Source: Candidatus Peregrinibacteria bacterium
GTDB lineage: Bacteria > Patescibacteriota > Gracilibacteria > Peribacterales > Peribacteraceae
Direction: 5' to 3'
DNA length: 60,456 bases
Assembly: GCA_016178535.1 (NCBI GenBank)
Contig: JACOTD010000078.1
Span: 1 to 60,456, forward strand
Shown: positions 10,795 to 46,831 of the stretch, piece after piece
Layout: every line of letters starts with the position of its first letter
How positions within the stretch are numbered: position 1 is the stretch's first letter
Notes under the pieces: generated by a model
The model's input: only the letters and a program-made list of their open reading frames with translations
Database searches by the model: none
What the model was told of the DNA's origin: nothing
Translations under genes and position numbers: made by a program

Positions 10795-11632
10795 AATTCT
10801 CTGGGAAGGATCCGCGGGCAGTCCTTCGACTCCGCTCAGGACAAGTATGCCCGCTCCTCAGCAGAAAAAGACACTTTCGGATTTCTCATACCTCAACAAA
10901 AAGACTCCTGACGGAGCCTTTTTGTGTGTGTATTCCCTCCTGCGACTATCGACGGTGTTTCTTCGAGGGACGACCGTTGAGCCGTTGTTGGTAGGAGGAT
11001 CCACGGAGGGGAGGTGCCCTCGTGCTCTTGCCCTGCTGGGGTTGCTTGTTTCTCCTCGTCACCCGGACGAAGTCCCCGTGCCGGTTCGCCGCGCGGGGCA
11101 CTGAGGCTCCGGGGGAACGCTGGGGAGAAAAGGGTGCACGTCCGTCGAGACAAACCTCTTCATCGCGGACGCGGCATCGCAGAGCAGAGAGAGGAGAAGG
11201 CACGGGCGATCCCGTGTCCTCTACCCAGAAATATCCAAGAGAGGAAATGTGTGGCCGGGAGGCACGAGCGCTTGAGCGCCTTCTCCCTTCTCTGCGCGGG
11301 GAGGAATCGTCAGATTGGTTTCTGATTTTTGGTATCTGGCTTTTCCTCAGAGTCGGTGGTGGCAAGGATCAGGGAATGTTTGTGTGGGCACCCGGGTGCG
11401 GTGTATGTGGGTGTGGATCTCTGTGATCTGCTCGGTAGCCATCGGCGTTGGAAGCAAATCTGAGCATGGTAAGGGTCGAGCTTTAGGTTTGCAAGCAACT
11501 GGGCTGTGATGACCATCGGAATTCTTCTGTGAATATATTTTGTATTCAGAAAACAAGAGGGATCGGTACATGGAGAATAAGAACATATAGATGCATTTCC
11601 GTATGTTCTCAAATTTTGTGCAAGTTCTTCCG

Positions 11633-12034
11633 TCATTGTCCCATGACGGCGGGGAAGAGGATGAGCACGATGACGATGAGGATGACGATGAAGCTCACGA
11701 GGGATGCGGCAGCCGCGACGTCCTTGGTTGCCCGTAATCCCGCGTGGTACTCCTCGCTCACCGATCCCGCGACCCGCAACTCATCGACGCAGTCCGTGAG
11801 GTGCTCGAGGGCGGTGTTCAGCAGCTCGATCGACAGGAAGAACCCTCCTGCGAGCGCGAGGGCAACCGTCTGCCACCGTTCGACGTTGAAGAGGGAAGAG
11901 ACCACGAGCAGCGCGATGAAGCCCGAGAGGAACAGCCGGAAGTTCCGTTCCTCCTTCAGCGCCTTCTGAAAGCCGCGCTTGGCATGGCCGAAGCTGCGGA
12001 CGGTGGTCTTGATCATGAGGGAAATGTACTCCAT
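11633..12034 (-). CDS. dgkA: Diacylglycerol kinase / undecaprenol kinase family (DgkA)
   Basis: RSFGHAKRGFQKALKEERNFRL...SIELLNTALEHLTDCVD...ATKDVAAAASLV, the DgkA signature with 3 TM helices. Start uncertain: ATG at 12034 or 12016, or TTG at 12082. Confidence 0.85.
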   Translation of the reverse strand: MEYISLMIKTTVRSFGHAKRGFQKALKEERNFRLFLSGFIALLVVSSLFNVERWQTVALALAGGFFLSIELLNTALEHLTDCVDELRVAGSVSEEYHAGLRATKDVAAAASLVSFIVILIVIVLILFPAVMGQ

Positions 12035-14264: not shown

Positions 14265-15770
14265 TCAAAAGATCTCCGTCACCGCTTCCGCCAGATCCAC
14301 CGCCTTGGCATCGACCATCACGGGTTCGCGGTCTTCTTCCACGATGCACAGGAGCTTGAGGGGTCGCTTGAACACATCGCGGAGATTCTCCTCGATACGG
14401 TAGGTCGCCTCGTTCCGCGAAACGCGGTCGCGGTGGAAGCGCGAAGAAAAGCTCACGGTCACGGTCAGATCCTCAATCGCCATCACCCGTCCGTTCTTGA
14501 GCGACATCTTCACCGCTGCCGGCGTCGCCTGGTCGACGATGGAGGGCCACAGACGAAGGATCGCCGCCATCGTCAGCTCGGGGGCTTCGATCGTCGCGGC
14601 AGCCGGGCTTTCGTTCTCCTGTTTGGCCGTCTTGTCCGGCTCCTTGCGTTCCTTCTGCGTGGTTCGGCGCGACGTTTCGGGATCCTTGGGTGTGAGCTCC
14701 GTCTTGATCGTGTCCTTCTTGACAGCGTCTTTTTCCTGTCGGACCGTGCTGTCGAGTTTCTCGGGGAGAACCTGTCCGCACAGCGAGAGCAGCGCAGATT
14801 CGAGCACGAGGCCCGGAATGGGGGCGACCCTGAGGTTCTTGATGGCCTCGAGCAGGATATCGAGCATCGCCACGATCGCCGTGATTTGCTGCTTCGCTTC
14901 AATCGCCGCGTGCAGACGCTGCCGGAGCATGCCGAGGAGAGAACGCGTCACGCCGTCGAGCGGGATGCCCGCATCTTCGGCGTGTCGCACAGCCGTGACG
15001 ATCCCCGTCCGATCCTTCTCTTCGAGTGTTTTCAGGATGGTCTCCGCTTCCTCCTCCCCCGAGGCCCCCATGCGCTCCCGCACTTCCTCGAGCCCGATCT
15101 TCTCCAGAGAACGCAGCTGATCAAGCAGCGAAATGCCGTCGCGCATGCCTCCCTGTGCGTGGTGCGCGATGGCCCGCAACGCGGCGCGGTCGACCGTGAT
15201 GTGCTCCTGATCGGCAATGTGCTGGAGCCGACGGACGATGTCATCTTCCCGGATGTGCCGGAACGTGTAGCGCTGGCACCGGGACTGGATCGTCGCGGGA
15301 ATCTTGTGGAGCTCGGTCGTGGCGAGGATGAAGTACGCGTAGGGCGGCGGTTCCTCGAGGGTCTTCAGGAGCGCATTGAATGCTTCGCGCGTGAGCATGT
15401 GGACTTCATCGATGATGTAGACCTTCGCGTGCGTCACGACCGGCGCGAATTCGATGCGCTCGATGAGGCTGCGGATGTCGTCGATTCCCCGATTGCTCGC
15501 TGCGTCGATCTCGATCAAGTCGACGATGCTCCCGTCTTCTACCCCCCGCACGATCTGCCGCGCGAGTGTCTCATCGTCGACCCCCCTCGTGAGGATCGCC
15601 TTCGCGAGGATGCGTGCCACAGAGGTCTTCCCCGTGCCGCGCGCACCGGCGAAGAGGTACGCATGCGCGATCTTGCCCTGCGCCGCCGCGTGCTCGAGCG
15701 TCGTCACGACGTGGTCCTGCCCCACGACATCGGCGAAGGTCTGCGGACGGTAGGTGCGGTAGAGGGACAT
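14265..15770 (-). CDS. dnaX: DNA polymerase III subunit gamma/tau
   Basis: MSLYRTYRPQTFADVVGQDHVVTTLEHAAAQGKIAHAYLFAGARGTGKTSVARILAKAI...IIDEVHML...SRCQRYTF. Confidence 0.95.
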   Translation of the reverse strand: MSLYRTYRPQTFADVVGQDHVVTTLEHAAAQGKIAHAYLFAGARGTGKTSVARILAKAILTRGVDDETLARQIVRGVEDGSIVDLIEIDAASNRGIDDIRSLIERIEFAPVVTHAKVYIIDEVHMLTREAFNALLKTLEEPPPYAYFILATTELHKIPATIQSRCQRYTFRHIREDDIVRRLQHIADQEHITVDRAALRAIAHHAQGGMRDGISLLDQLRSLEKIGLEEVRERMGASGEEEAETILKTLEEKDRTGIVTAVRHAEDAGIPLDGVTRSLLGMLRQRLHAAIEAKQQITAIVAMLDILLEAIKNLRVAPIPGLVLESALLSLCGQVLPEKLDSTVRQEKDAVKKDTIKTELTPKDPETSRRTTQKERKEPDKTAKQENESPAAATIEAPELTMAAILRLWPSIVDQATPAAVKMSLKNGRVMAIEDLTVTVSFSSRFHRDRVSRNEATYRIEENLRDVFKRPLKLLCIVEEDREPVMVDAKAVDLAEAVTEIF

Positions 15771-38345: not shown

Positions 38346-39991
38346 TGATGTCACCTCTCACACTGCGTCGGTTGGAGTCGAACACCCGCCTCATCGCGAA
38401 TCCGTCGCGCCAGACGATGATCGACGATGTGATGAACGCCCGTGAAGCGATTGTCACAAAAACGGGAGCGCTCGCCGCATGGTTCCCCTCAACCGACACC
38501 GGTCGCATCCCCAAAGACACGTACATCGTGAAGCACGGACCGAGCGTCGAAGCCGTCGACTGGACATCTCCGAATGCGCATCCGATGACGCCGGAGATGT
38601 TCGATTGTCTGTTCGATCAAGCACTGGAGATTCTCTCTGCCAAGCGGAAACTCTACGTCCTCGACCGCAGCGTTGGGGCGCAGGAGCAGTACGCGTTGCC
38701 GCTGAAAGTGATGACGGACAGTCCGCTGACGTCGCTCTTCGCCGACACGATGTTTCGGCCATGCTTCGACAGGGCTCAGCATGACAGTTCCAAGAGCGTC
38801 TTCGCCGATCAACCGTTCACGCTCCTCGTGCTTCCGCACGATCCTCTTCGCACGGAAAACTTCGAAGGAGAACTCCGTATCGAGCATGGAGCCATCGTTC
38901 CTCGTGTCGTCGCGATGGACATGGAGCGGCGAATGGGGATCGTGCTGGGGACGAAGTACCTCGGCGCCGTCAAGAAAACGCTCTTCACCGCGATGAATCA
39001 TCTCTTGCCCGATCACGGCGTGCTTCCGCTCCACTGCTCTGCGGTCTCGGACAACTGCGGGGAGACCCATCTCTTCCTCGGGCTCTCGGGGACGGGCAAG
39101 ACGACGCTTTCGACCGCAGCGAATCTCTCGCTCATCGGCGATGACGAGCATCTGTGGTCGAGTGACGGCATCGCGAACATCGAGAACGGCTGCTACGCCA
39201 AGCTCATCCGCTTGAGCACAGAGAAGGAGCCGCAGATTTACGAAGCGGCCTTCGGATCACGCTCGAATGTCACCAATGGCGTCATCATCGAGAATACGAT
39301 GGTCTACCCCGATGGCAGCGTCGACTTGGACGACGATCGTCTTACAGAAAACTCCCGCGCGGCCTACCCGCTCTCGTTCCTCGAGAACACCGTTCCTTCC
39401 GCAACCGGAAGCCATCCGCAAACGATCCTCTTCCTCACCGCCGATGCCGAAGGAGTCCTTCCGCCCATCAGCAAACTGACGCTCCATCAGGCGCTGCTGT
39501 GGTTCCTCATGGGCTACACGAGCAAGCTCGCGGGAACCGAGACGGGCGTGATCGAACCGCAGCCGAACTTCTCCCGCTTCTTCGGCGCGCCGTTCATGCT
39601 CAGGAGACCGCACGACTATCTCGATCTCTTCCAGAAGTTCGTCACCGCGCATGGAAGCGATATCTATTTGGTCAATACTGGGTGGGCGGGAGGCCCGTAC
39701 GGAGTCGGGAAGAGGATGGATATTTCTCTGACGCGCTCGCTCGTCACCTCCGCTCTCACGGGCGCGCTCGAGAGCGTTCCGTACCGTGAAGACCGCCGCT
39801 TCCATCTCTTCGTCCCGGAGAGTTGTCCGGGCATCGATCCGATGCTCCTGAATCCAGAACGTCAGTGGAGCGATCGTGATGCATACGCCAGGAGGGCCGA
39901 CGCGCTCGCGGCAAAATTCGCGGCGACCTTCGAGAAGAATTTCGGCGGAACCGTCGCGGAAGAAATCGCGAGGGAATGTCCTGGGAGATAA
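38345..39991 (+). CDS. pckA: Phosphoenolpyruvate carboxykinase (ATP)
   Basis: The kinase-1a P-loop is FLGLSGTGKTTLS, followed by LIGDDEHLWS, and the ATP-type PEPCK C-terminal NTGWAGGPYGVGKRM. The ATG at 38345 overlaps the aminotransferase stop (TGATG). Confidence 0.92.
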   Translation: MMSPLTLRRLESNTRLIANPSRQTMIDDVMNAREAIVTKTGALAAWFPSTDTGRIPKDTYIVKHGPSVEAVDWTSPNAHPMTPEMFDCLFDQALEILSAKRKLYVLDRSVGAQEQYALPLKVMTDSPLTSLFADTMFRPCFDRAQHDSSKSVFADQPFTLLVLPHDPLRTENFEGELRIEHGAIVPRVVAMDMERRMGIVLGTKYLGAVKKTLFTAMNHLLPDHGVLPLHCSAVSDNCGETHLFLGLSGTGKTTLSTAANLSLIGDDEHLWSSDGIANIENGCYAKLIRLSTEKEPQIYEAAFGSRSNVTNGVIIENTMVYPDGSVDLDDDRLTENSRAAYPLSFLENTVPSATGSHPQTILFLTADAEGVLPPISKLTLHQALLWFLMGYTSKLAGTETGVIEPQPNFSRFFGAPFMLRRPHDYLDLFQKFVTAHGSDIYLVNTGWAGGPYGVGKRMDISLTRSLVTSALTGALESVPYREDRRFHLFVPESCPGIDPMLLNPERQWSDRDAYARRADALAAKFAATFEKNFGGTVAEEIARECPGR

Positions 39992-40039
39992 ACGATGCTT
40001 GCTGCTTTCAAAATGCGTCAATATCCCTACAATTGACCT

Positions 40040-41539
40040 ATGCGCGATATTTTCGATCACGAACGGCTCAGTCCTGCCGTTTCTGGATTGTTGCCAAGCA
40101 TGAATCCTTGGTGGGAAGGAAAGCCAGCCAAGCCGCAACCGCCCTTTCATCGATGGGCGTTTTCCATCACGAAGAAGAAACTCGATTCCGACCTCGCGCC
40201 GATCGTTGTGATACGCGGACCGAGGCAGGTGGGGAAAACCACCCTTCAAATGCAGCTCATCGAACACTACATCAAGGACAGAGGCATCGATCCTTCGCGC
40301 ATACTTCGTGTGCAATTCGACGACCTTCCCTCGTTGAGAGAATTGGCAGATCCCATACTGTCCATTGGTCGTTGGTTTGAAAGTCGCGTGTTGAAGCGAA
40401 CATTCAATCAGGCCGCCACAGACGGACAGCCAGCTTTCCTGTTCTTCGATGAAATACAGAACATCGCCGATTGGGCGATTCAGCTTAAATCTCTTGTCGA
40501 TACTCATCGCGTAAAAGTTCTGGTTACCGGCAGTTCGGCGCTACGAATGACCGCTGGAAAGGACAGCTTGGCAGGTCGCATTGCACAAGTGGATCTCGGC
40601 ACGTTGCTTCTGCGGGAAATCGCCGGCATTCGCTACGGGGAAACCATTGAGCCGCACTTGCCCCATAATGGACTTGATCCTTTACTCCTTCCAGATTTCT
40701 GGCGATCGTTGCAGCAGTATGGACTCAAGAATCGGGAAATCCGCGACCGCGCCTTCAGTGCTTTTTCGGCGAGAGGAGGCTATCCCATCGCTCATGTTCG
40801 CGAAGAGACACCATGGCCGGAAATCGCCGAGCAACTCAATGAGAACGTCGTGAAGCGCGCCATTCAGCACGATCTTCGGATCGGGGAGCGCGGCAAACGG
40901 AGAAACCAGGGGCTGCTCGAGGAGGTTTTCCTGCTCGCCTCCCGATACGTCGGCCAATCGCCCGGGCAGGCCGTATTCGTTCAGGAGGTGCGCAGCGCGC
41001 TTCGAGCAAGTGTGAGCTGGGACAAAATCCGGAATTATCTGAAATTCCTGGATTCCGCTCTTCTCTTGAAGCTCATCGAACCCTTGGAGCTTCGACTGAA
41101 GAAGAAAAAGGGGAATTATAAACTCTGCATCTGCGATCACGGGCTCCGAGCCAGCTGGCTGCGCGAAGTGGTTCCCCTCGATCCCGTCGCATTGCAACGC
41201 CTGAGTCATCTGAGCGATCTCGCGGGACATATTGCAGAGAGCGTCGTGGGGTATTTTCTCGCGGGTTTGCCCAACATGAGTATCAACCATTTCCCCGAAC
41301 GAGACATTGAGCCGGAAATCGACTTTATCCTCACCGTCGGCGCGCATCGCATTCCCGTCGAAGTGAAGTATCGGCAACGCATCGATCCCCACAGAGACAC
41401 CTTGGGGCTGCGGGCCTTTCTCGAGAAGACCGTGTACAACGCTCCGTTCGGCATTCTTGTGACCCTCGATGATACCATTGAAATTCCCGATGCTCGGATC
41501 ATCCCCATCTCCTTGCGGTCATTGTTGCTTCTGCGTTGA
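40040..41539 (+). CDS. COG1373-type AAA+ ATPase (AAA_14 plus a DUF4143-like C-terminal domain)
   Basis: NPWWEGKP...IVVIRGPRQVGKTTLQMQLI (Walker A) and AFLFFDEIQNIADW (Walker B). The C-terminal region with IAESVVGYFL...EIDFILT...IPVEVKY is typical of DUF4143 PD-(D/E)xK-like ends. Confidence 0.8.
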   Translation: MRDIFDHERLSPAVSGLLPSMNPWWEGKPAKPQPPFHRWAFSITKKKLDSDLAPIVVIRGPRQVGKTTLQMQLIEHYIKDRGIDPSRILRVQFDDLPSLRELADPILSIGRWFESRVLKRTFNQAATDGQPAFLFFDEIQNIADWAIQLKSLVDTHRVKVLVTGSSALRMTAGKDSLAGRIAQVDLGTLLLREIAGIRYGETIEPHLPHNGLDPLLLPDFWRSLQQYGLKNREIRDRAFSAFSARGGYPIAHVREETPWPEIAEQLNENVVKRAIQHDLRIGERGKRRNQGLLEEVFLLASRYVGQSPGQAVFVQEVRSALRASVSWDKIRNYLKFLDSALLLKLIEPLELRLKKKKGNYKLCICDHGLRASWLREVVPLDPVALQRLSHLSDLAGHIAESVVGYFLAGLPNMSINHFPERDIEPEIDFILTVGAHRIPVEVKYRQRIDPHRDTLGLRAFLEKTVYNAPFGILVTLDDTIEIPDARIIPISLRSLLLLR

Positions 41540-41560
41540 AATTCAGCCTAGCTTCTCTCG

Positions 41561-41637
41561 AAATCCGCGGCGACCTTCGAGAAGAATTTCGGCGGAACCG
41601 TCGCGGAAGAAATCGCGAGGGAATGTCTGGGGAGGTA
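41561..41637 (+). repeat. Relic second copy of the pckA 3' end (~77 nt)
   Basis: aaatccgcggcgaccttcgagaagaatttcggcggaaccgtcgcggaagaaatcgcgagggaatgtctggggaggtag is near-identical to pckA 39914-39991 (aaattcgcggcgaccttcgagaag...gagggaatgtcctgggagataa). Confidence 0.9.
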
Positions 41638-41648
41638 GGAGATCAACT

Positions 41649-44048
41649 TTACCTTTGAGGATTGGAATTGCTATCCACAGACATACGTCGTTCTTCCGTG
41701 GGATACAATTTTTTCAGCACCAATCCCCATGCCTGATGTTGTCGTTCGGATTGGGATGCCACTCGGATTTGTTCAAGGCGTGAACGCAATTCATTCACAA
41801 GTCTGCGCACGTAAGTGTCTCCGCATTCCACCGTATCAAGCCATCGCCAGGCAATTTCACCGGACAGAATTTTTCTCATGTCTGGCATGGTTACTTCCCA
41901 TGGCTGTTTGCCAAGTTTTCCTGCAACGCCTTCGATGTCGGTACGGAAATCTGCAATTGCCTGAGGATCATCCAATAGAGATTCTTCTGAACGAATCACA
42001 CCTGTTCTATGGGTACTTCTCTGTTCTTCGATAAGGGTGCGTATCGCGCGTTCGAATTGCTCTTCGCTTTCCCAGTGGAGACGCCTGCAATTGAACATCG
42101 TACGCATATTCTTGCTATTCACTCTTCCTACGTATTCGTCAGTTCCTCTTGGTTGTCGCGTGAAGAACGCTGCCATGTACGAGTCATCGTTGAGAATGAA
42201 TTGCAGGGAAAGCTGAGGCAGAGTCACCACGATGTGGTGCCCGTGATGAATGGTAGAATAATCGCGTTGCTGCGTATCAGTTGTATCTGCTCCATCCGTG
42301 TCCCACGCGAATTCTGCGCTTTCACGCTGCTGCAGCAGTACTTTGTGAAGACAGGCAAGTCGAGGCATTGATGTTCTCCTTCCCCCAGGTGTTCCTTCTT
42401 GTGCGTGATCGCTACCATCGCCATCCACCGCATCTGTTTGTCGTTCTCGCGAAAGATATATTCCCTCAACATCATTCGAGTGCAGCAGCCGAGACTCCAG
42501 TGTCCGTAAAGAAGGTACACTCATTGCCGACCACTGATCTTTATCAGCTGCGTTGATGCCCGCGATGAGAAATGTCGCGCTAATGTTGTTCGAGTCTTCA
42601 TCAACGGCGCCGGGCAATTGTGGTTTAGTCGTCGAACCTGGATACAGAATATGGACGAAATCTTGAAATTCGACGAATATGCATGAACGAAGCAACTCCT
42701 CTTGCTCCTTCCATTGAGGACAAAGTATTTCGAGCATTCTCTGCATACGACCTGCAAGTCGCGGCAAATTCTCCTTGATCGCAATTGTTTTCTCCAGAAT
42801 TGGAGATGGAAAGGAGAGAGGCGGAATCCAATTTTTATTGCCTGTCATTTGAACATCATCTGGGGATGCAGTGATACCATTTCCGTTATCTGATCTTATA
42901 AGCGACAAAGTACGTTCTTTCGTCTCAGAGAAGCGGACTCCATTGTCACTATCCTTCCAACCATAAGTACCAATGAGATGAGGCAGATTTCTTTTGGCTC
43001 GAATTGACGGCAGATACCCATGGGGAAATCTTGAAAGTATTCCATGTGCAATCTCTACGTTTGCGCATTCTTGTTCAAAATTGTTGAAAGTATCACGTAC
43101 AGCGCCAATTGCATTGCCATAATGCGATGACGATTGCCCAAATTGATGCATTTCTCCATCATTGAGCGGGTCTTTCGCGTGCTTGGGCCGCCGCATTTCC
43201 CAATTTTGATTTTGCGTTTGCAAAAGACGGCGAAACGCTGCTTGTTTCTCTGCGGGGGGAATTGGAAGTTTGCCAAATGCATGGCGCAACATCGATGTCA
43301 AAAATACTACCGAAAAAATTCTTGGATCAATAGTACCAGGTTCAATGATGTCAATGATTTTCTCCATGCATCGAATGCTTATGGCAATAAGCGCCGTGAG
43401 AAATTCTTCTGGAGACAAACTCGGCATTACCGTTCCAATTTCCATTGCGATTGACTCACTGATTTCCTTAGTAAGATCATGCAGTGTTGCCCGTGTTATC
43501 CCTACGCCCATTCGCACACTCTCTCCATTTTCCGTTGTTGTTACCCTTATTCCTTGATAGATCTGATTGATGGTCTCGCATCGTATTGCTATTGCTGGGT
43601 CCAGAACATCCATGATCGGAGCAATTCTCAATCGATCATTCATGAGCTGAGTCTTGGTATCGTCGCGCAATTTTTGAAGACTGATTCTTTCAGTATGATC
43701 ATCCATCATCAAATTTGCTACCATGAGCGGGTAGAGAGCCTTTTCTCTCAGTCTTTCCGAGGATTCTACGGATCTGGTTGGAACAGTTGGATCATCAGTT
43801 GTCTCTGAATCATTTGATATCGCAACTTGTGGGTTCAGCACATTACCAACTTCATGCCGTGCGGTTAAGCGCTCCCGCTCCAATCGTTGACCCAATTCCT
43901 CTTCAATTGCTCGCAGCAAAGTCTCTTCGTCGGGAGCCAGCGTCTTGCCTTTACGAACACGCCGAGGATCATCTCGTTTGCCTTCCAGTTGTTCTTTTTT
44001 ACGTCGCAATAAAGTTGTCTCTGACGAGGCTATTTGGTCTAGTTTCAT
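41649..44048 (-). CDS. Hypothetical protein, 799 aa, AT-richer foreign composition, no recognisable domain
   Basis: Clean 2.4-kb ORF with an ATG at 44048. Codon usage is visibly A/T3-rich, unlike the flanking genes. No TM or signal peptide is present. The N-terminus is charged and coiled-coil-like (KKEQLEGKRDDPRRVRKGK...EEELGQRLERERL). Confidence 0.7.
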   Translation of the reverse strand: MKLDQIASSETTLLRRKKEQLEGKRDDPRRVRKGKTLAPDEETLLRAIEEELGQRLERERLTARHEVGNVLNPQVAISNDSETTDDPTVPTRSVESSERLREKALYPLMVANLMMDDHTERISLQKLRDDTKTQLMNDRLRIAPIMDVLDPAIAIRCETINQIYQGIRVTTTENGESVRMGVGITRATLHDLTKEISESIAMEIGTVMPSLSPEEFLTALIAISIRCMEKIIDIIEPGTIDPRIFSVVFLTSMLRHAFGKLPIPPAEKQAAFRRLLQTQNQNWEMRRPKHAKDPLNDGEMHQFGQSSSHYGNAIGAVRDTFNNFEQECANVEIAHGILSRFPHGYLPSIRAKRNLPHLIGTYGWKDSDNGVRFSETKERTLSLIRSDNGNGITASPDDVQMTGNKNWIPPLSFPSPILEKTIAIKENLPRLAGRMQRMLEILCPQWKEQEELLRSCIFVEFQDFVHILYPGSTTKPQLPGAVDEDSNNISATFLIAGINAADKDQWSAMSVPSLRTLESRLLHSNDVEGIYLSRERQTDAVDGDGSDHAQEGTPGGRRTSMPRLACLHKVLLQQRESAEFAWDTDGADTTDTQQRDYSTIHHGHHIVVTLPQLSLQFILNDDSYMAAFFTRQPRGTDEYVGRVNSKNMRTMFNCRRLHWESEEQFERAIRTLIEEQRSTHRTGVIRSEESLLDDPQAIADFRTDIEGVAGKLGKQPWEVTMPDMRKILSGEIAWRWLDTVECGDTYVRRLVNELRSRLEQIRVASQSERQHQAWGLVLKKLYPTEERRMSVDSNSNPQR

Positions 44049-44054
44049 ATTGAT

Positions 44055-44083
44055 ATATTAATCTATAAATTCTTTAGAGTCAA
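44055..44083 (-). promoter_or_regulatory. Sigma-70-like promoter for the 799-aa gene (candidate leaderless transcript)
   Basis: On the minus strand: TTGACT (44083-44078), a 17-nt spacer, TAATAT (44060-44055), then atcaat and the ATG at 44048. No Shine-Dalgarno sequence fits in the 6 nt between. Confidence 0.4.
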
Positions 44084-44116
44084 CAAAGGCTTTTTGCCTT
44101 CCTTAAGCACTCTTTA

Positions 44117-44236
44117 ACCCCGGCACCTTCTGCTTCAGAAGCTCCACGACGGCGTCCAAATCTTCATTCACCATGATGTGATCGAAGAGATCCTTTCGCT
44201 CGGAAAAGAAGTCGAGGTCTTTCTCCCATTCTTCTG
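44117..44236 (-). repeat. Relic second copy (~120 nt) of the 3' end of the DUF35-GK gene
   Basis: aaccccggcaccttctgcttcagaagctccacgacggcgtccaaatcttcattcaccatgatgtgatcgaagagatcctttcgctcggaaaagaagtcgaggtctttctcccattcttc versus 44770-44890. About eight differences were counted by eye, including a 1-nt gap. Confidence 0.9.
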
Positions 44237-44325
44237 GACGAGTTTTTTGCGGGTTCCTGATTGACATGCACTAAAAGCTTGCATAGAATTGTCTCATTAG
44301 TGGCTTCGGCCTCCGAGGACTCCGC

Positions 44326-44730
44326 TCACGCGGGGTCCGATTTTATATACGAGGCGATGCATGCACGAACGGAAGTGAATTCTTTGGTGGAGATCATGCC
44401 GATTTTTCGAAGGAGCCGTTTACTGCTGATCGTTCGGAGTTGCGACAAGCAAGCGAATGAAACTCCCCGATCATGAGCAATCCGATGATAGTGCTTGCCG
44501 AATCGTTTCTTCGATGTGAGTGGGATAACCCACAGCATGTATCCGTTGAATTTTTTCACAATGAGAACGGGGCGCTCAAAGTGATCGTTCTTCCCGTCAC
44601 TCTCCACTCCCACATTGATCCCAATTGAGCACCACCACACTTCTCGTTCATGAAAAAATACCGTCCGCTTGTCTTCCTGGGCGTCGAGCTTCTTTTTCAT
44701 GCTGTTCCATTGATCGAAGAGTTTTTGCAT
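44326..44730 (-). CDS. PemK/MazF-like toxin, solitary (no adjacent antitoxin ORF)
   Basis: 134 aa: WNSMKKKLDAQEDKRTVFFHEREVWWCSIGINVGVESDGKNDHFERPVLIVKKFNGYMLWVIPLTSKK. This matches the long-form PemK/MazF pattern (..WW...G.N.G.E.dGk...f.RPvlI..kf). It is AT-richer than the host genes. Confidence 0.7.
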   Translation of the reverse strand: MQKLFDQWNSMKKKLDAQEDKRTVFFHEREVWWCSIGINVGVESDGKNDHFERPVLIVKKFNGYMLWVIPLTSKKRFGKHYHRIAHDRGVSFACLSQLRTISSKRLLRKIGMISTKEFTSVRACIASYIKSDPA

Positions 44731-44757: not shown

Positions 44758-45711
44758 TCACGCCCCCCTCAATCCCGGCACCTTCTGCTTCAGAAGCTCC
44801 ACGACGGCGTCCACGTCTTCATTCACCATGATGTGATCGAAGAGGTCTTTGCGCTCGGAAAAGAAGTCGAGGTCCTTCTCCGCATTCTTCAGGCGGTCGG
44901 CGATGTGCTCTTCGGTGTCGCGGCCTCTTGTTCGGAGTCTGTGCAATAAATGACTCAGCATCGCCCGCTTGCTGTTGCCGGGCGGGAGGAGGCCGCAGGA
45001 GAGGATGGAGCGGCGGCCGTACTGTTCGGCGAGGCCTTGGAGCAAGTGCATCTCGGTGATGACGACGGGAATTTTCCCCGCCTTCCAAATGCGCTCGATG
45101 TCCTGCGCGCGGTAGCCGTACAGACGGTCTTCGGATGAGGAAGGGATCTGCGTGCTCGCGATGATCTCGCCTCGGCTCTGGAGTTCAGCGAAGGTTTTCT
45201 TGGCAATGTAGCGATACTCGCCGTCGTCTCCCGCTTTCTTCCTGCGCGTCGTGTGGATCGGCACGTTCTCGAGGTAGCTGGAACACATCTGAACGAGGAG
45301 GCGGCTGATGGTGGATTTTCCCACGCCCGAGGGGCCAGTCAGTGCAAGAATGTATCCAGGGAAGTTCGGCACTTCCTTCGAAACGGGCAGACGTTGTTTC
45401 GTTGTCTCGTTGTGTTGTTGCTTGTCTTGCGATGCAGGTTCGAATGCGACGTCATACATTCGGAGCTTCTCTCCATTGATTCGAGAAAGTCTCATGCGGG
45501 GGAGAACGGCGTCACCAATCGAACAGGGGGCCGTGAGAGGCGCGAGAACGTTGGAGCCGTCTTCGAGCGCGATGAGGGCGATGCGCCGCGGGAATTTCCC
45601 AAAGGCTGCAGGCGGATGCAGGAGGGTCGTCACGGAGACGACGGTGCCGGGCTGCATCTTGCTCCCGCGCTGCTTGAGCGCACGGTGAAGGGAAGGCGAC
45701 GTGTCAGTCAT
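44758..45711 (-). CDS. Fusion protein: DUF35-type OB-fold domain (thiolase/HMG-CoA-synthase partner) plus a guanylate-kinase-like P-loop domain
   Basis: The N-terminal part GTVVSVTTLLHPPAAFGKFPRRIALIALEDGSNVLAPLTAPCSIGDAVLPRMRL fits the DUF35 OB fold, and no Zn-ribbon Cys pairs are present. The C-terminal part LTGPSGVGKSTISRLL...IHTTRRKKAGDDGEYRYI...LYGY...NEDVD fits a guanylate-kinase-like fold. The ATG at 45711 overlaps the thiolase stop by 8 nt. Confidence 0.75.
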   Translation of the reverse strand: MTDTSPSLHRALKQRGSKMQPGTVVSVTTLLHPPAAFGKFPRRIALIALEDGSNVLAPLTAPCSIGDAVLPRMRLSRINGEKLRMYDVAFEPASQDKQQHNETTKQRLPVSKEVPNFPGYILALTGPSGVGKSTISRLLVQMCSSYLENVPIHTTRRKKAGDDGEYRYIAKKTFAELQSRGEIIASTQIPSSSEDRLYGYRAQDIERIWKAGKIPVVITEMHLLQGLAEQYGRRSILSCGLLPPGNSKRAMLSHLLHRLRTRGRDTEEHIADRLKNAEKDLDFFSERKDLFDHIMVNEDVDAVVELLKQKVPGLRGA

Positions 45712-46831
45712 GCATGCGTTCGAGGATATGTATACCACAGCTCGCGCACGCGCCGCCGAAATTATGCGCCATTCCCCACCTCTCTTCGCGCTCTGTCAAC
45801 TGCTTCGCGAGGTCGTTCAGCTGCTTGATGCCGGTGGCGGCGACGGGGTGTCCGCAGCCTTTGAGTCCACCGCTCGCGTTGATGGCGAAGCGCGTCTTCT
45901 TCCCTTCGTACAAATCCTTGTAGAGCGAAATTCCCTCGCCCGGGTTCGCAAAGCCCAGATCTTCCAGGTTGATGAGAGCGGCGATGGAGAAGCAGTCGTG
46001 GGTCTCGAGGCACGAGAGATCGTCGAGCGTGATGTCGGCTTCTTTCAGCGCTCTCCCACAGGCATCCCTCGACGCCGGGAAGCTCGTGATGGACGGACGC
46101 TTCGTGATGCTGACGGCATCGGAGGCGATGCTCGAGGCGGCGAGACGGAATTCGCTCTCGTGATTGGTCGAGAGGATGCAGGCGGCGCCGCCGTCGCTGA
46201 TGGGGGAGCAATCGAGGAGGCGGAGCGGATCGGCCACGAGCGGGCTTTTGGAAACCGCTTCCGGCGTGATGACGTTTCGAAACTGCGCGAAGAGATTCCC
46301 TTTCGCATTCCTGTGATGTACGGCGGAGACGAGGCTCAGCTCTTCCCGCGTGAGGCCGTGCTCGTGCATGTAGCGCGCGGCGATGAGTCCGAAGATACCG
46401 GGGAACGTGAGGCCCGATGGACGATCTTCTTCGCTGTCCGCTGCAACCATCAGCCCCGCGGCGATGGCATCGACGGAGACGTCGGTCATTTTCTCCGCTC
46501 CGACGACGAGCACCGTCTTCGCTCTGCCGCTCTCGAGGAACGCGCACGCCGTGTGAAGGGCGTACGCCCCCGACCCGCAGGCGGATTCCACCCGGATGGC
46601 GGGCGGGCGGTGAGGGAGCAAGGCCGAAACGAGCGAGCCGAGGTGCGCTTGGCTGCTCGTCACTTCTCCGAGCATATTGCTCACGATGATGGCATCAATC
46701 TCCAGAGCCGTGATGCGCGAGGAATCGATGGCCGCCGTCACGGCTTCCTCAATGAGATCCATCAAACTTTTGTCCCATCGCTCGCCGAAGCGGGTTTGGC
46801 CTTGGCCGATGAGGGAGATGGAAGTGTTCAA
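45704..46831 (-). CDS. Archaeal-type acetyl-CoA C-acetyltransferase (thiolase)
   Basis: 375 aa: VESACGSGAYALHTA (nucleophile Cys), ...ETHDCFSIAAL, GGLKGCGHPVAATG, and NFGGACAS. This is the short thiolase form that pairs with HMG-CoA synthase and DUF35. Confidence 0.88.
   Translation of the reverse strand: MNTSISLIGQGQTRFGERWDKSLMDLIEEAVTAAIDSSRITALEIDAIIVSNMLGEVTSSQAHLGSLVSALLPHRPPAIRVESACGSGAYALHTACAFLESGRAKTVLVVGAEKMTDVSVDAIAAGLMVAADSEEDRPSGLTFPGIFGLIAARYMHEHGLTREELSLVSAVHHRNAKGNLFAQFRNVITPEAVSKSPLVADPLRLLDCSPISDGGAACILSTNHESEFRLAASSIASDAVSITKRPSITSFPASRDACGRALKEADITLDDLSCLETHDCFSIAALINLEDLGFANPGEGISLYKDLYEGKKTRFAINASGGLKGCGHPVAATGIKQLNDLAKQLTEREERWGMAHNFGGACASCGIHILERMHD

Follow-up and report, generated by a model that had tools for sequence, protein, structure and literature searches.

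The 3' end of pckA, the gene for ATP-dependent phosphoenolpyruvate (PEP) carboxykinase, occurs twice in the 60,456-nt stretch of Peribacteria DNA analyzed here (hereafter, the window), once as the functional end of the gene and once on the far side of a 1,569-nt insert that carries a single ATPase gene of the AAA_14-DUF4143 type (Table 1). The differences between the two copies, taken together with those in comparable pairs elsewhere in the same genome, indicate that the copies are alleles of functional gene ends and not decayed target duplications. We consider it somewhat probable that the cassette was added by homology-anchored, additive integration, that is, by a Campbell-type single crossover that required no dedicated recombinase. 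The window is contig C71 of G000, a 1.25-Mb groundwater genome (92 contigs, 97.5% complete) of the Peribacteria within the candidate phyla radiation (CPR). The relatives used for comparison are G001 from the same genus, G019 from the same family and G166 from another genus of the family. G001 has ~87% nucleotide identity to G000 in the flanks of the pckA locus, and the genus is represented in the protein database by these two genomes only.

The repeat search paired 39914-39990 with 41561-41637, direct repeats of 77 nt that are identical at 73 of 77 positions (95%) and have a start-to-start spacing of 1647. When the stop codon is included, the repeat is 78 nt long and the copies have five differences. 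This bears out a reading made earlier from the letters alone (the sequence-only reading), which had described the end of pckA as recurring, with a few substitutions, on both sides of the ATPase gene. Both copies keep the reading frame and end in ECPGR-TAA (copy 1) and ECLGR-TAG (copy 2). The base-by-base alignment that the same reading had called for revealed a 61-nt identical core with differences flanking both of its edges: the copies are distinguished at position 5 (T in copy 1, C in copy 2) and within positions 67-78 (CCTGGGAGATAA / CTGGGGAGGTAG), giving the haplotypes T...AGATAA for copy 1 and C...AGGTAG for copy 2. Whole-genome BLAST with the pckA tail returned exactly two copies in the 1.25 Mb (E 3.5e-35 and 1.8e-29), and a 23-nt core of the repeat occurred twice in the window vs 0 times in 100 shuffles. 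The tail is native pckA sequence, since the C-terminus RECPG, followed by R, H, K or L and the stop, is kept in the pckA of four more distant relatives. The intact 548-aa product matches protein-database entry P0121.

The insert begins directly after the pckA TAA, so that its placement exactly at the stop codon by the sequence-only reading holds, and it ends 21 nt past the ATPase stop. Its content is one open reading frame (ORF) with ~50 nt upstream and 21 nt downstream; this ORF bears the AAA_14 and DUF4143 domains, and no mobile-element gene was found inside the insert. Profile searches of the window's contig for tyrosine and serine recombinases, rve, DDE_Tnp_1 and TnpB gave no match, in agreement with the earlier statement that the window contains no integrase or transposase. 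No inverted repeats were found at the insert ends, no microhomology was visible at the pckA junctions, no GTTRRRY core was present at the insert boundaries, and no tRNA or tmRNA was found in the 36-48 kb region of the window. An insertion sequence (IS) or transposon was therefore rejected, as there are no terminal inverted repeats and no transposase, and the duplication is 77 nt of in-frame coding sequence, which is far longer than IS target duplications, as had been pointed out from the sequence.

The second copy might in principle be an assembly artefact, for example a chimera of two strains, or of the chromosome and a small circle sharing the pckA tail. G000 is a metagenome-assembled genome, and 140/141-nt perfect repeats of a kind typical of k-mer artefacts occur at its contig ends. 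However, the copies differ at 4-5 positions, and 77 nt is shorter than the apparent final assembler k of 141 (deduced from the 140/141-nt perfect terminal repeats elsewhere in the assembly), so that single reads or k-mers span them. Logan contigs with 100% identity cover window positions 39951-41595 (runs SRR12113389 and SRR12113410) and 41598-44148. They reproduce three of the four junctions of the tail copies, which thus recur in independent assemblies of two or three runs, and one of them, L142, confirms that the displaced tail is joined to the downstream 799-aa gene. These contigs end exactly where a k=31 graph must branch within the 61-nt identical core, and such a graph cannot separate the integrated form from an empty site plus a 1.65-kb circle. 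The same architecture is found at many loci in G000 and in two other independently assembled genomes. We regard the second pckA-tail copy as real and consider an artefact very unlikely, to the point of being nearly negligible.

The search for an empty site in relatives, also suggested by the sequence-only reading, was successful in G019, where the pckA stop is followed by 38 nt and then by the stop of a convergent gmk-like gene. The distance between pckA and the gmk-like gene is thus 38 nt in G019, 2.1 kb in G001 and 4.77 kb in G000, and the pckA tail is single-copy in G019, G018, G031 and G040. In exact-pattern scans of JGI metagenomes, neither the empty site nor other strains of the pckA locus were found. 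The G001 locus contains three pckA-tail copies of 72, 38 and 31 nt, which separate a 56-aa DUF5678 gene, a 230-aa orphan and a 301-aa orphan. None of these cassette genes is present at the G000 locus. Conversely, G001 lacks counterparts of the ATPase, a MazF toxin and the 799-aa gene of G000, with a weak 32% hit to the ATPase P-loop region as the sole match, and the 799-aa protein is unrelated to the G001 cassette proteins. Because the contents of G000 and G001 differ entirely, we view the spacer between the convergent gene ends as a hot spot that was filled independently in the two genomes. All five pckA-tail copies of the two species are in frame with a stop (CPGR-TAA, CLGR-TAG, CPGL-TGA, CPGR-TAA and CPGR-TGA) and share a common ~31-nt core beside it, and the repeats at other loci are unrelated. 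The proximal variants are AGA-TAA and CTT-TGA. The last sense codon is AGG in the most distal copy of both genomes, and AGA (twice) or CTT in the other three, which gives a weak hint that the distal tails may be older ends pushed outward as new ends arrive with cassettes.

A second cassette is located ~3 kb from the ATPase insert in the same spacer. Here, the gmk-like gene has its last 41 codons (44758-44880) repeated at 44103-44225 (123 nt) with the MazF gene between, and the two tails have 13 differences, ten of them synonymous or stop-preserving. In G001, MazF is absent and the gmk-like gene has a single tail. No antitoxin ORF was recognized beside the MazF gene, and exact-protein look-ups of pckA and MazF returned no record. 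The 799-aa orphan sits between the two displaced tails, its stop 11 nt from the displaced pckA tail, and no longer has flanking repeats of its own; it probably entered the ancestral 38-nt pckA/gmk-like spacer in an earlier insertion.

The nature of the differences between the copies was analyzed in the five pairs with a clear reading frame, pckA, gmk-like, adk, C47 and C86 (the last three are named in Table 1), against a null of random substitutions with the same transition share. In total, 32 of the 42 differences are synonymous or stop-preserving vs 11.5 expected for random substitutions (P<5e-5). By pair, the counts are 10/13 for gmk (P 1.5e-4), 9/11 for adk (P 1e-4), 7/10 for C47, 3/3 for C86 and 3/5 for pckA. 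Furthermore, the adk start, the displaced adk fragment and the G001 orthologue are about equidistant from one another, with 11, 9 and 12 differences in 78 nt, nearly all at third positions. Because the differences are mostly synonymous and the adk trio is equidistant, the copies appear to be different alleles of a functional gene end that were joined by recombination.

A different origin of the repeats would be a true long target duplication, in which foreign DNA that has no homology to the target is joined at a staggered break or copied in by fork template switching, so that 40-125 nt of recipient sequence are duplicated at insertion, followed by divergence or allelic replacement. This origin is implied by the published name of such insertions, and the parts of the paper by Furuta, Abe & Kobayashi (2010, NAR 38:2428, PMC2853133) that we draw on voice a suspicion of DNA breakage. 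It would also suit a cargo that seemingly came from outside the class and so requires some illegitimate joining, an ATPase with a PD-(D/E)xK-like motif, and those pairs that are 99-100% identical, as fresh duplications would be (C88, 59/59; C72). Nevertheless, neutral drift from an identical start would give, by our own estimate, at most ~40% apparent synonymous differences, and the 76% observed as synonymous or stop-preserving is too many for such drift unless a second, allelic-replacement event took place at each locus. Most cargos (MazF, ParE, HicA, PIN and Zeta) have no DNA-cutting activity, Ku was not found in G000, and the pckA junctions show no microhomology. Overall, we judge a true target duplication to be rather unlikely.

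In the homology-anchored integration that we favor, the ATPase gene is a small selfish or defence cassette. The incoming DNA would be this cargo gene joined to a short handle, namely a related bacterium's version of the final ~77 nt of pckA. If this handle recombined with the resident pckA tail, the event, with the exchange falling within the 61-nt identical core, would place the cargo directly behind an intact pckA and leave a second, non-functional tail copy on the far side of the cargo. Repeat events at the same handle would then produce cassette arrays separated by tail copies, as in G001. We infer uptake by transformation, a circular or one-sided-homology intermediate and a single-crossover event. 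The work would fall to the host's own RecA and ComEC, and no dedicated integrase would be needed; RecA and the DNA-uptake channel ComEC are encoded in G000. At 31 nt, the shortest repeat (in G001) comes close to the lower length limit known for RecA-type recombination. The proposal would also account for the position of the repeats at gene tails or starts, because only handles that contain the very end of a gene leave that gene intact. Finally, because loci of ATPase homologues elsewhere have no repeats, the duplication would be a signature of the way the host lineage integrates DNA, not of the ATPase family.

Several points weigh against this proposal. First, a donor with the pckA tail joined to the ATPase gene in a relative is hypothetical, as 150 other genomes of the class gave no homologue at E<=1e-20 and the best database relatives are ~68% identical, and the proposal does not itself account for how the cargo first became linked to a handle. 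Second, the polarity of the pckA differences with G001 as the outgroup is weakly informative (two informative sites), and one outgroup is unreliable for polarity because tails at hot spots themselves get replaced. Third, the displaced gmk-like tail looks foreign over its whole length, contrary to the simple model, the adk mosaic is 6:3 in the 5' part and not clean, and the pairs C43 and C64 show mostly non-synonymous differences. At last, target duplication with later allelic replacement of the functional gene could give the same pattern in two steps.

The sequence-only reading had likened the geometry to integrative elements that carry a replacement copy of the target gene's end. One half of this comparison, the incoming gene-end copy, fits the allele-like differences; the other half, a dedicated site-specific integrase, is unsupported. 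In its explicit form, the insert would be the remains of a site-specific integrative element, or a satellite of one, whose integrase was lost or acts in trans, with the pckA tail as the attachment site and a replacement tail carried on attP. The same ~31-nt core by the stop codon in all five pckA-tail copies would be expected of such an element, and islands driven by an integrase typically accrete in tandem at one site. Recombinases are also encoded in G000: the genome-wide search that had been proposed found one Xer-like tyrosine recombinase (contig C61; PF02899+PF00589, that is, Phage_integrase with a SAM-like N-domain) and four large serine recombinases, which are 453-640 aa long and have a Resolvase domain, but all of them are on other contigs, and neither the insert and its surroundings nor the rest of the 60-kb window encodes a recombinase. 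Moreover, about a dozen other sites have repeats of 41-123 nt that are unrelated in sequence, some of them at gene 5' ends, and even among the pckA-tail copies the repeats range from 31 to 77 nt. Neither hairpins nor attC-like folds were found in the repeats (z ~-1.3). Serine integrases leave only ~2-bp identities, not 77-nt repeats. We thus consider a site-specific element quite improbable, though a trans-mobilized one is conceivable for the pckA site taken by itself, given its shared core and the recombinases of the genome.

Two related candidates were tried and rejected. An attC-like or otherwise structured repeat was dismissed because the two pckA copies and the gmk copy folded, as DNA, no better than shuffles (z -1.3 to -1.4) and there were no Rfam hits at E<=0.1. 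An integron was dismissed because no IntI lies by the array, the tyrosine recombinase is an Xer domain pair on another contig, and neither attC folds nor GTTRRRY cores were found. The large serine recombinase genes are located at C34:13871-15373, C41:1747-3669, C5:4541-6169 and C26:8852-10213. Those on C34 and C41 each lie between ~80-nt inverted repeats (on C34, 13934-14012 / 15442-15519, 96%), and the end of the C34 recombinase ORF reads like a translated tRNA gene.

Table 1 Features of the pckA/gmk-like region in the window and sister repeats in G000. Plain positions are those of the window; positions after a contig label are those of that contig.
Feature	Position	Strand	Remarks
pckA, ATP-dependent PEP carboxykinase, intact, 548 aa	38345-39991	+	PF01293 E 1e-146, 490 bits
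Proximal (functional) pckA-tail copy	39914-39991	+	Last 25 codons + TAA
Inserted segment, 1,569 nt	39992-41560	+	G+C 0.52-0.58 vs ~0.59-0.61 in pckA
TACAAT, -10-like hexamer	40028-40033	+	6 nt before ATPase ATG
Cargo gene, 499-aa AAA_14 + DUF4143 ATPase	40040-41539	+	PD-(D/E)xK-like C-terminal motif
Displaced pckA-tail copy	41561-41638	+	In frame, own TAG stop
799-aa orphan gene	41649-44048	-	G+C 0.44-0.50, lowest of region
Displaced 3' end of gmk-like gene	44103-44237	-	41 codons + TAA
Second cassette, solitary PemK/MazF-type toxin gene	44326-44730	-	PF02452 E 2e-11
Functional 3' end of gmk-like gene	44758-44892	-	Gene 44758-45738
adk 5' end repeat, 78 nt	C16:15430-16319		ParE + antitoxin cargo
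C86 repeat, 41 nt			HicB-HicA cargo
C47 5'-end repeat, 81 nt			PIN + Phd cargo
C88 repeat, 59 nt			59/59 identical; 189-aa gene without assigned family as cargo
C72, three repeats of 81-89 nt	C72:286-2279		99-100% identity; DUF3800 gene and Zeta-toxin gene between
C16 repeat, 106 nt, after rpsI			Sel1 lipoprotein cargo
C2, three copies	C2:44-2210		Hint/intein-domain protein, last ~85 nt recur twice downstream
C43, C34, C45, C64 and C68 repeats			Short inserts

The pckA locus is one of a series. From a genome self-BLAST of local direct repeats, we counted 14 similar inserts in G000, with repeats of 41-123 nt that mostly copy the 3' or 5' end of the neighboring gene (Table 1). Tandem paralogues (C33, C39 and C55), an rRNA/intron region (C29), intergenic repeat families and contig-end k-mer artefacts were removed from this list. 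The repeats of the sister cassettes are unrelated in sequence to one another, in most of those examined the start or stop of the neighboring gene is included, and the cargo of the gene-bearing inserts is mostly toxin-antitoxin or defence. G001 has exact empty sites for the adk and C88 insertions, where a single repeat is contiguous with both flanks at the nucleotide level, and it has cassettes of its own: an HNH gene with a partner, and a nucleotidyltransferase gene inserted at the same tail as the G000 C43 insert. In G166, a search covering 396 kb revealed a GNAT-like gene (assigned by an acetyltransferase-type motif, without a Pfam search) between 60-nt copies of the zwf 3' end that are 87% identical (C1:76519-77257, loci L146-L147).

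Individual sister loci have further features. The adk duplication comprises the first 78 nt including the ATG; the upstream copy retains the start, and its coding capacity would now be limited to a 29-aa peptide. The C72 repeat encodes a hydrophobic peptide on the minus strand and is possibly a gene tail. On C2, the copies separate small membrane-protein genes and ParE-like genes, and the arrangement resembles a polymorphic-toxin locus whose C-terminal or immunity cassettes have been displaced. The displaced copy on C64 (10931-11045 / 11542-11656) has 15 non-synonymous changes, nearly all to Asn codons (YWVSVGWNGDRLSFYSW -> NWVNVNWNSDQLNFNNW). A ~150-nt element resembling a miniature inverted-repeat transposable element (MITE; TATACCCCTTCGC...AACGAGTATA) is present at C68:5177-5326 and C64:11292-11445, both times inside an insert with local direct repeats, and in at least 15 copies in G001, whose contigs often break in it. 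This element is 96-100% identical between G000 and G001, whose genes are only ~87% identical.

The cargo ATPase of the pckA locus scores 93.4 bits with PF13173 AAA_14 (cut-off 27) and 49.6 bits with PF13635 DUF4143 (cut-off 28.1), and it is full length by comparison with a very large family of ~500-aa proteins. Walker A G60-T68 (GPRQVGKTT), Walker B D137-E138 and the D428..E441-x-K443 motif are invariant in 12 homologues, and no solved structure was related to it by sequence. The PADLOC PDC-S01 models, which describe a candidate single-gene defence family, match it with E down to 1e-33, making it a candidate single-gene anti-phage defence system. Its nearest relatives are 62-70% identical and belong to other phyla (Planctomycetota, Omnitrophota, Pseudomonadota and others). 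Since a search of 150 other genomes of the class yielded no homologue at E<=1e-20, the ATPase gene is foreign to the lineage as sampled. At three homologue loci in other phyla, where the gene is solitary among housekeeping genes, flanking direct repeats were absent. The idea that the ATPase mobilizes itself and makes the repeats was rejected as a general cause, given these loci without repeats and the other cassettes without a nuclease. The TACAAT hexamer upstream of the ATPase gene is a possible leaderless-type promoter; the promoter consensus scan did not report it, a -35 element being lacking.

CPR bacteria have tiny genomes with few classical mobile elements, and how they come by accessory and defence genes is not well understood. 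The pckA locus is one well-documented example of how they may acquire accessory genes. On the integration that we propose, this locus and its siblings would show a simple route without any dedicated enzyme, in which a short copy of a gene end suffices to add a cassette and the gene is unharmed. For the 25-year-old puzzle of long target duplications, the diverged alleles argue for homologous recombination with the DNA of relatives over a staggered cut, and the phenomenon extends beyond restriction-modification (RM) genes. For annotation, displaced gene tails would mark recent gene gain and help to find cassettes. More tentatively, gene ends could serve repeatedly as docking sites in a recombinase-independent exchange of cassettes, much like that of integrons, in Peribacteria, and perhaps in CPR bacteria generally, with toxin-antitoxin and defence cassettes circulating as DNA with one handle, possibly as excised circles of ~1-2 kb, that are transformed in and added by RecA. 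If this were so, arrays would be built up and the last codons of housekeeping genes would be swapped continually. Our literature searches found no paper on duplicated-gene-end cassettes with toxin-antitoxin genes or in CPR bacteria. New here are the non-RM cargo, the reuse of one handle in sister species, the density of cassettes in 1.25 Mb and the allele-like copies.

By its geometry, the pckA locus matches the published 'insertion with long target duplication'. An earlier account of long target duplication, cited by Furuta et al., is reportedly that of Nobusato et al. (2000, Gene 259:99). In the parts of Furuta et al. that bear on this comparison, the term covers RM genes in Helicobacter, Haemophilus, Neisseria and others, inserted between duplications of >30 bp that often lie over start or stop codons; the species are mostly competent, and the mechanism is described as unresolved (PMC2853133). 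The argument that repeats spanning a start or stop keep the gene intact is also made there (PMC2853133). As in those cases, a small gene unit without transposase or integrase lies here between repeats of >30 bp that occur only once at the empty site of a relative, vary in length and sequence, are unique in the genome and often cover the start or stop of a neighbor that remains intact. Of the features listed in those parts, the pckA locus has the empty site (in G019), a repeat of >30 bp, no mobile genes and an insert of <20 kb; in place of RM genes, its cargo is the AAA_14-DUF4143 ATPase. It further differs from the published RM cases, in which DNA breakage by the cargo itself is suspected, in that sister loci carry RNase or kinase toxins, and from the long target duplications described there in its CPR host, in the reuse of sites into arrays and in the allele-like differences between copies.

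The locus can also be compared with four recombination-based systems. First, Campbell insertion-duplication yields the same product of fragment, insert and fragment, with the gene intact only if the fragment contains the gene's end, and with hybrid copies. Campbell insertion-duplication is mainly a laboratory tool or a matter of plasmids; here it would be natural, with handles of 31-123 nt and cassettes of one or two genes. Second, integrative elements that target the 3' ends of tRNA or protein genes and bring a replacement end (attL/attR), tandem arrays and integrase-less satellites among them, likewise have a duplicated end, leave the gene intact, push older ends outward and accrete recurrently. 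Those elements need a cognate tyrosine integrase and a fixed att core, whereas here there is no linked integrase, the sites are many and unrelated, and the repeat length is variable. Third, in the rhs, cdiA and tpsA arrays, new modules recombine on a conserved stretch in the 3' part of the gene and older ones are pushed downstream, each keeping a fragment. A study of tpsA in Neisseria is said to give an example of such displaced orphan arrays (cf. rhs and cdiA). In these systems, the handle lies inside the gene and the C-terminal toxin domain is replaced, whereas the insertion at pckA leaves the protein as it was and brings in an independent gene; contig C2 of G000 seems to hold a genuine case of the polymorphic-toxin type. 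At last, integrons resemble the present cassettes in outcome, with promoter-poor arrays of one-gene cassettes that are rich in toxin-antitoxin genes and a repeated site at a fixed position. Unlike in integrons, there is no IntI, attI, attC hairpin or core site here, and the repeat is housekeeping coding sequence.

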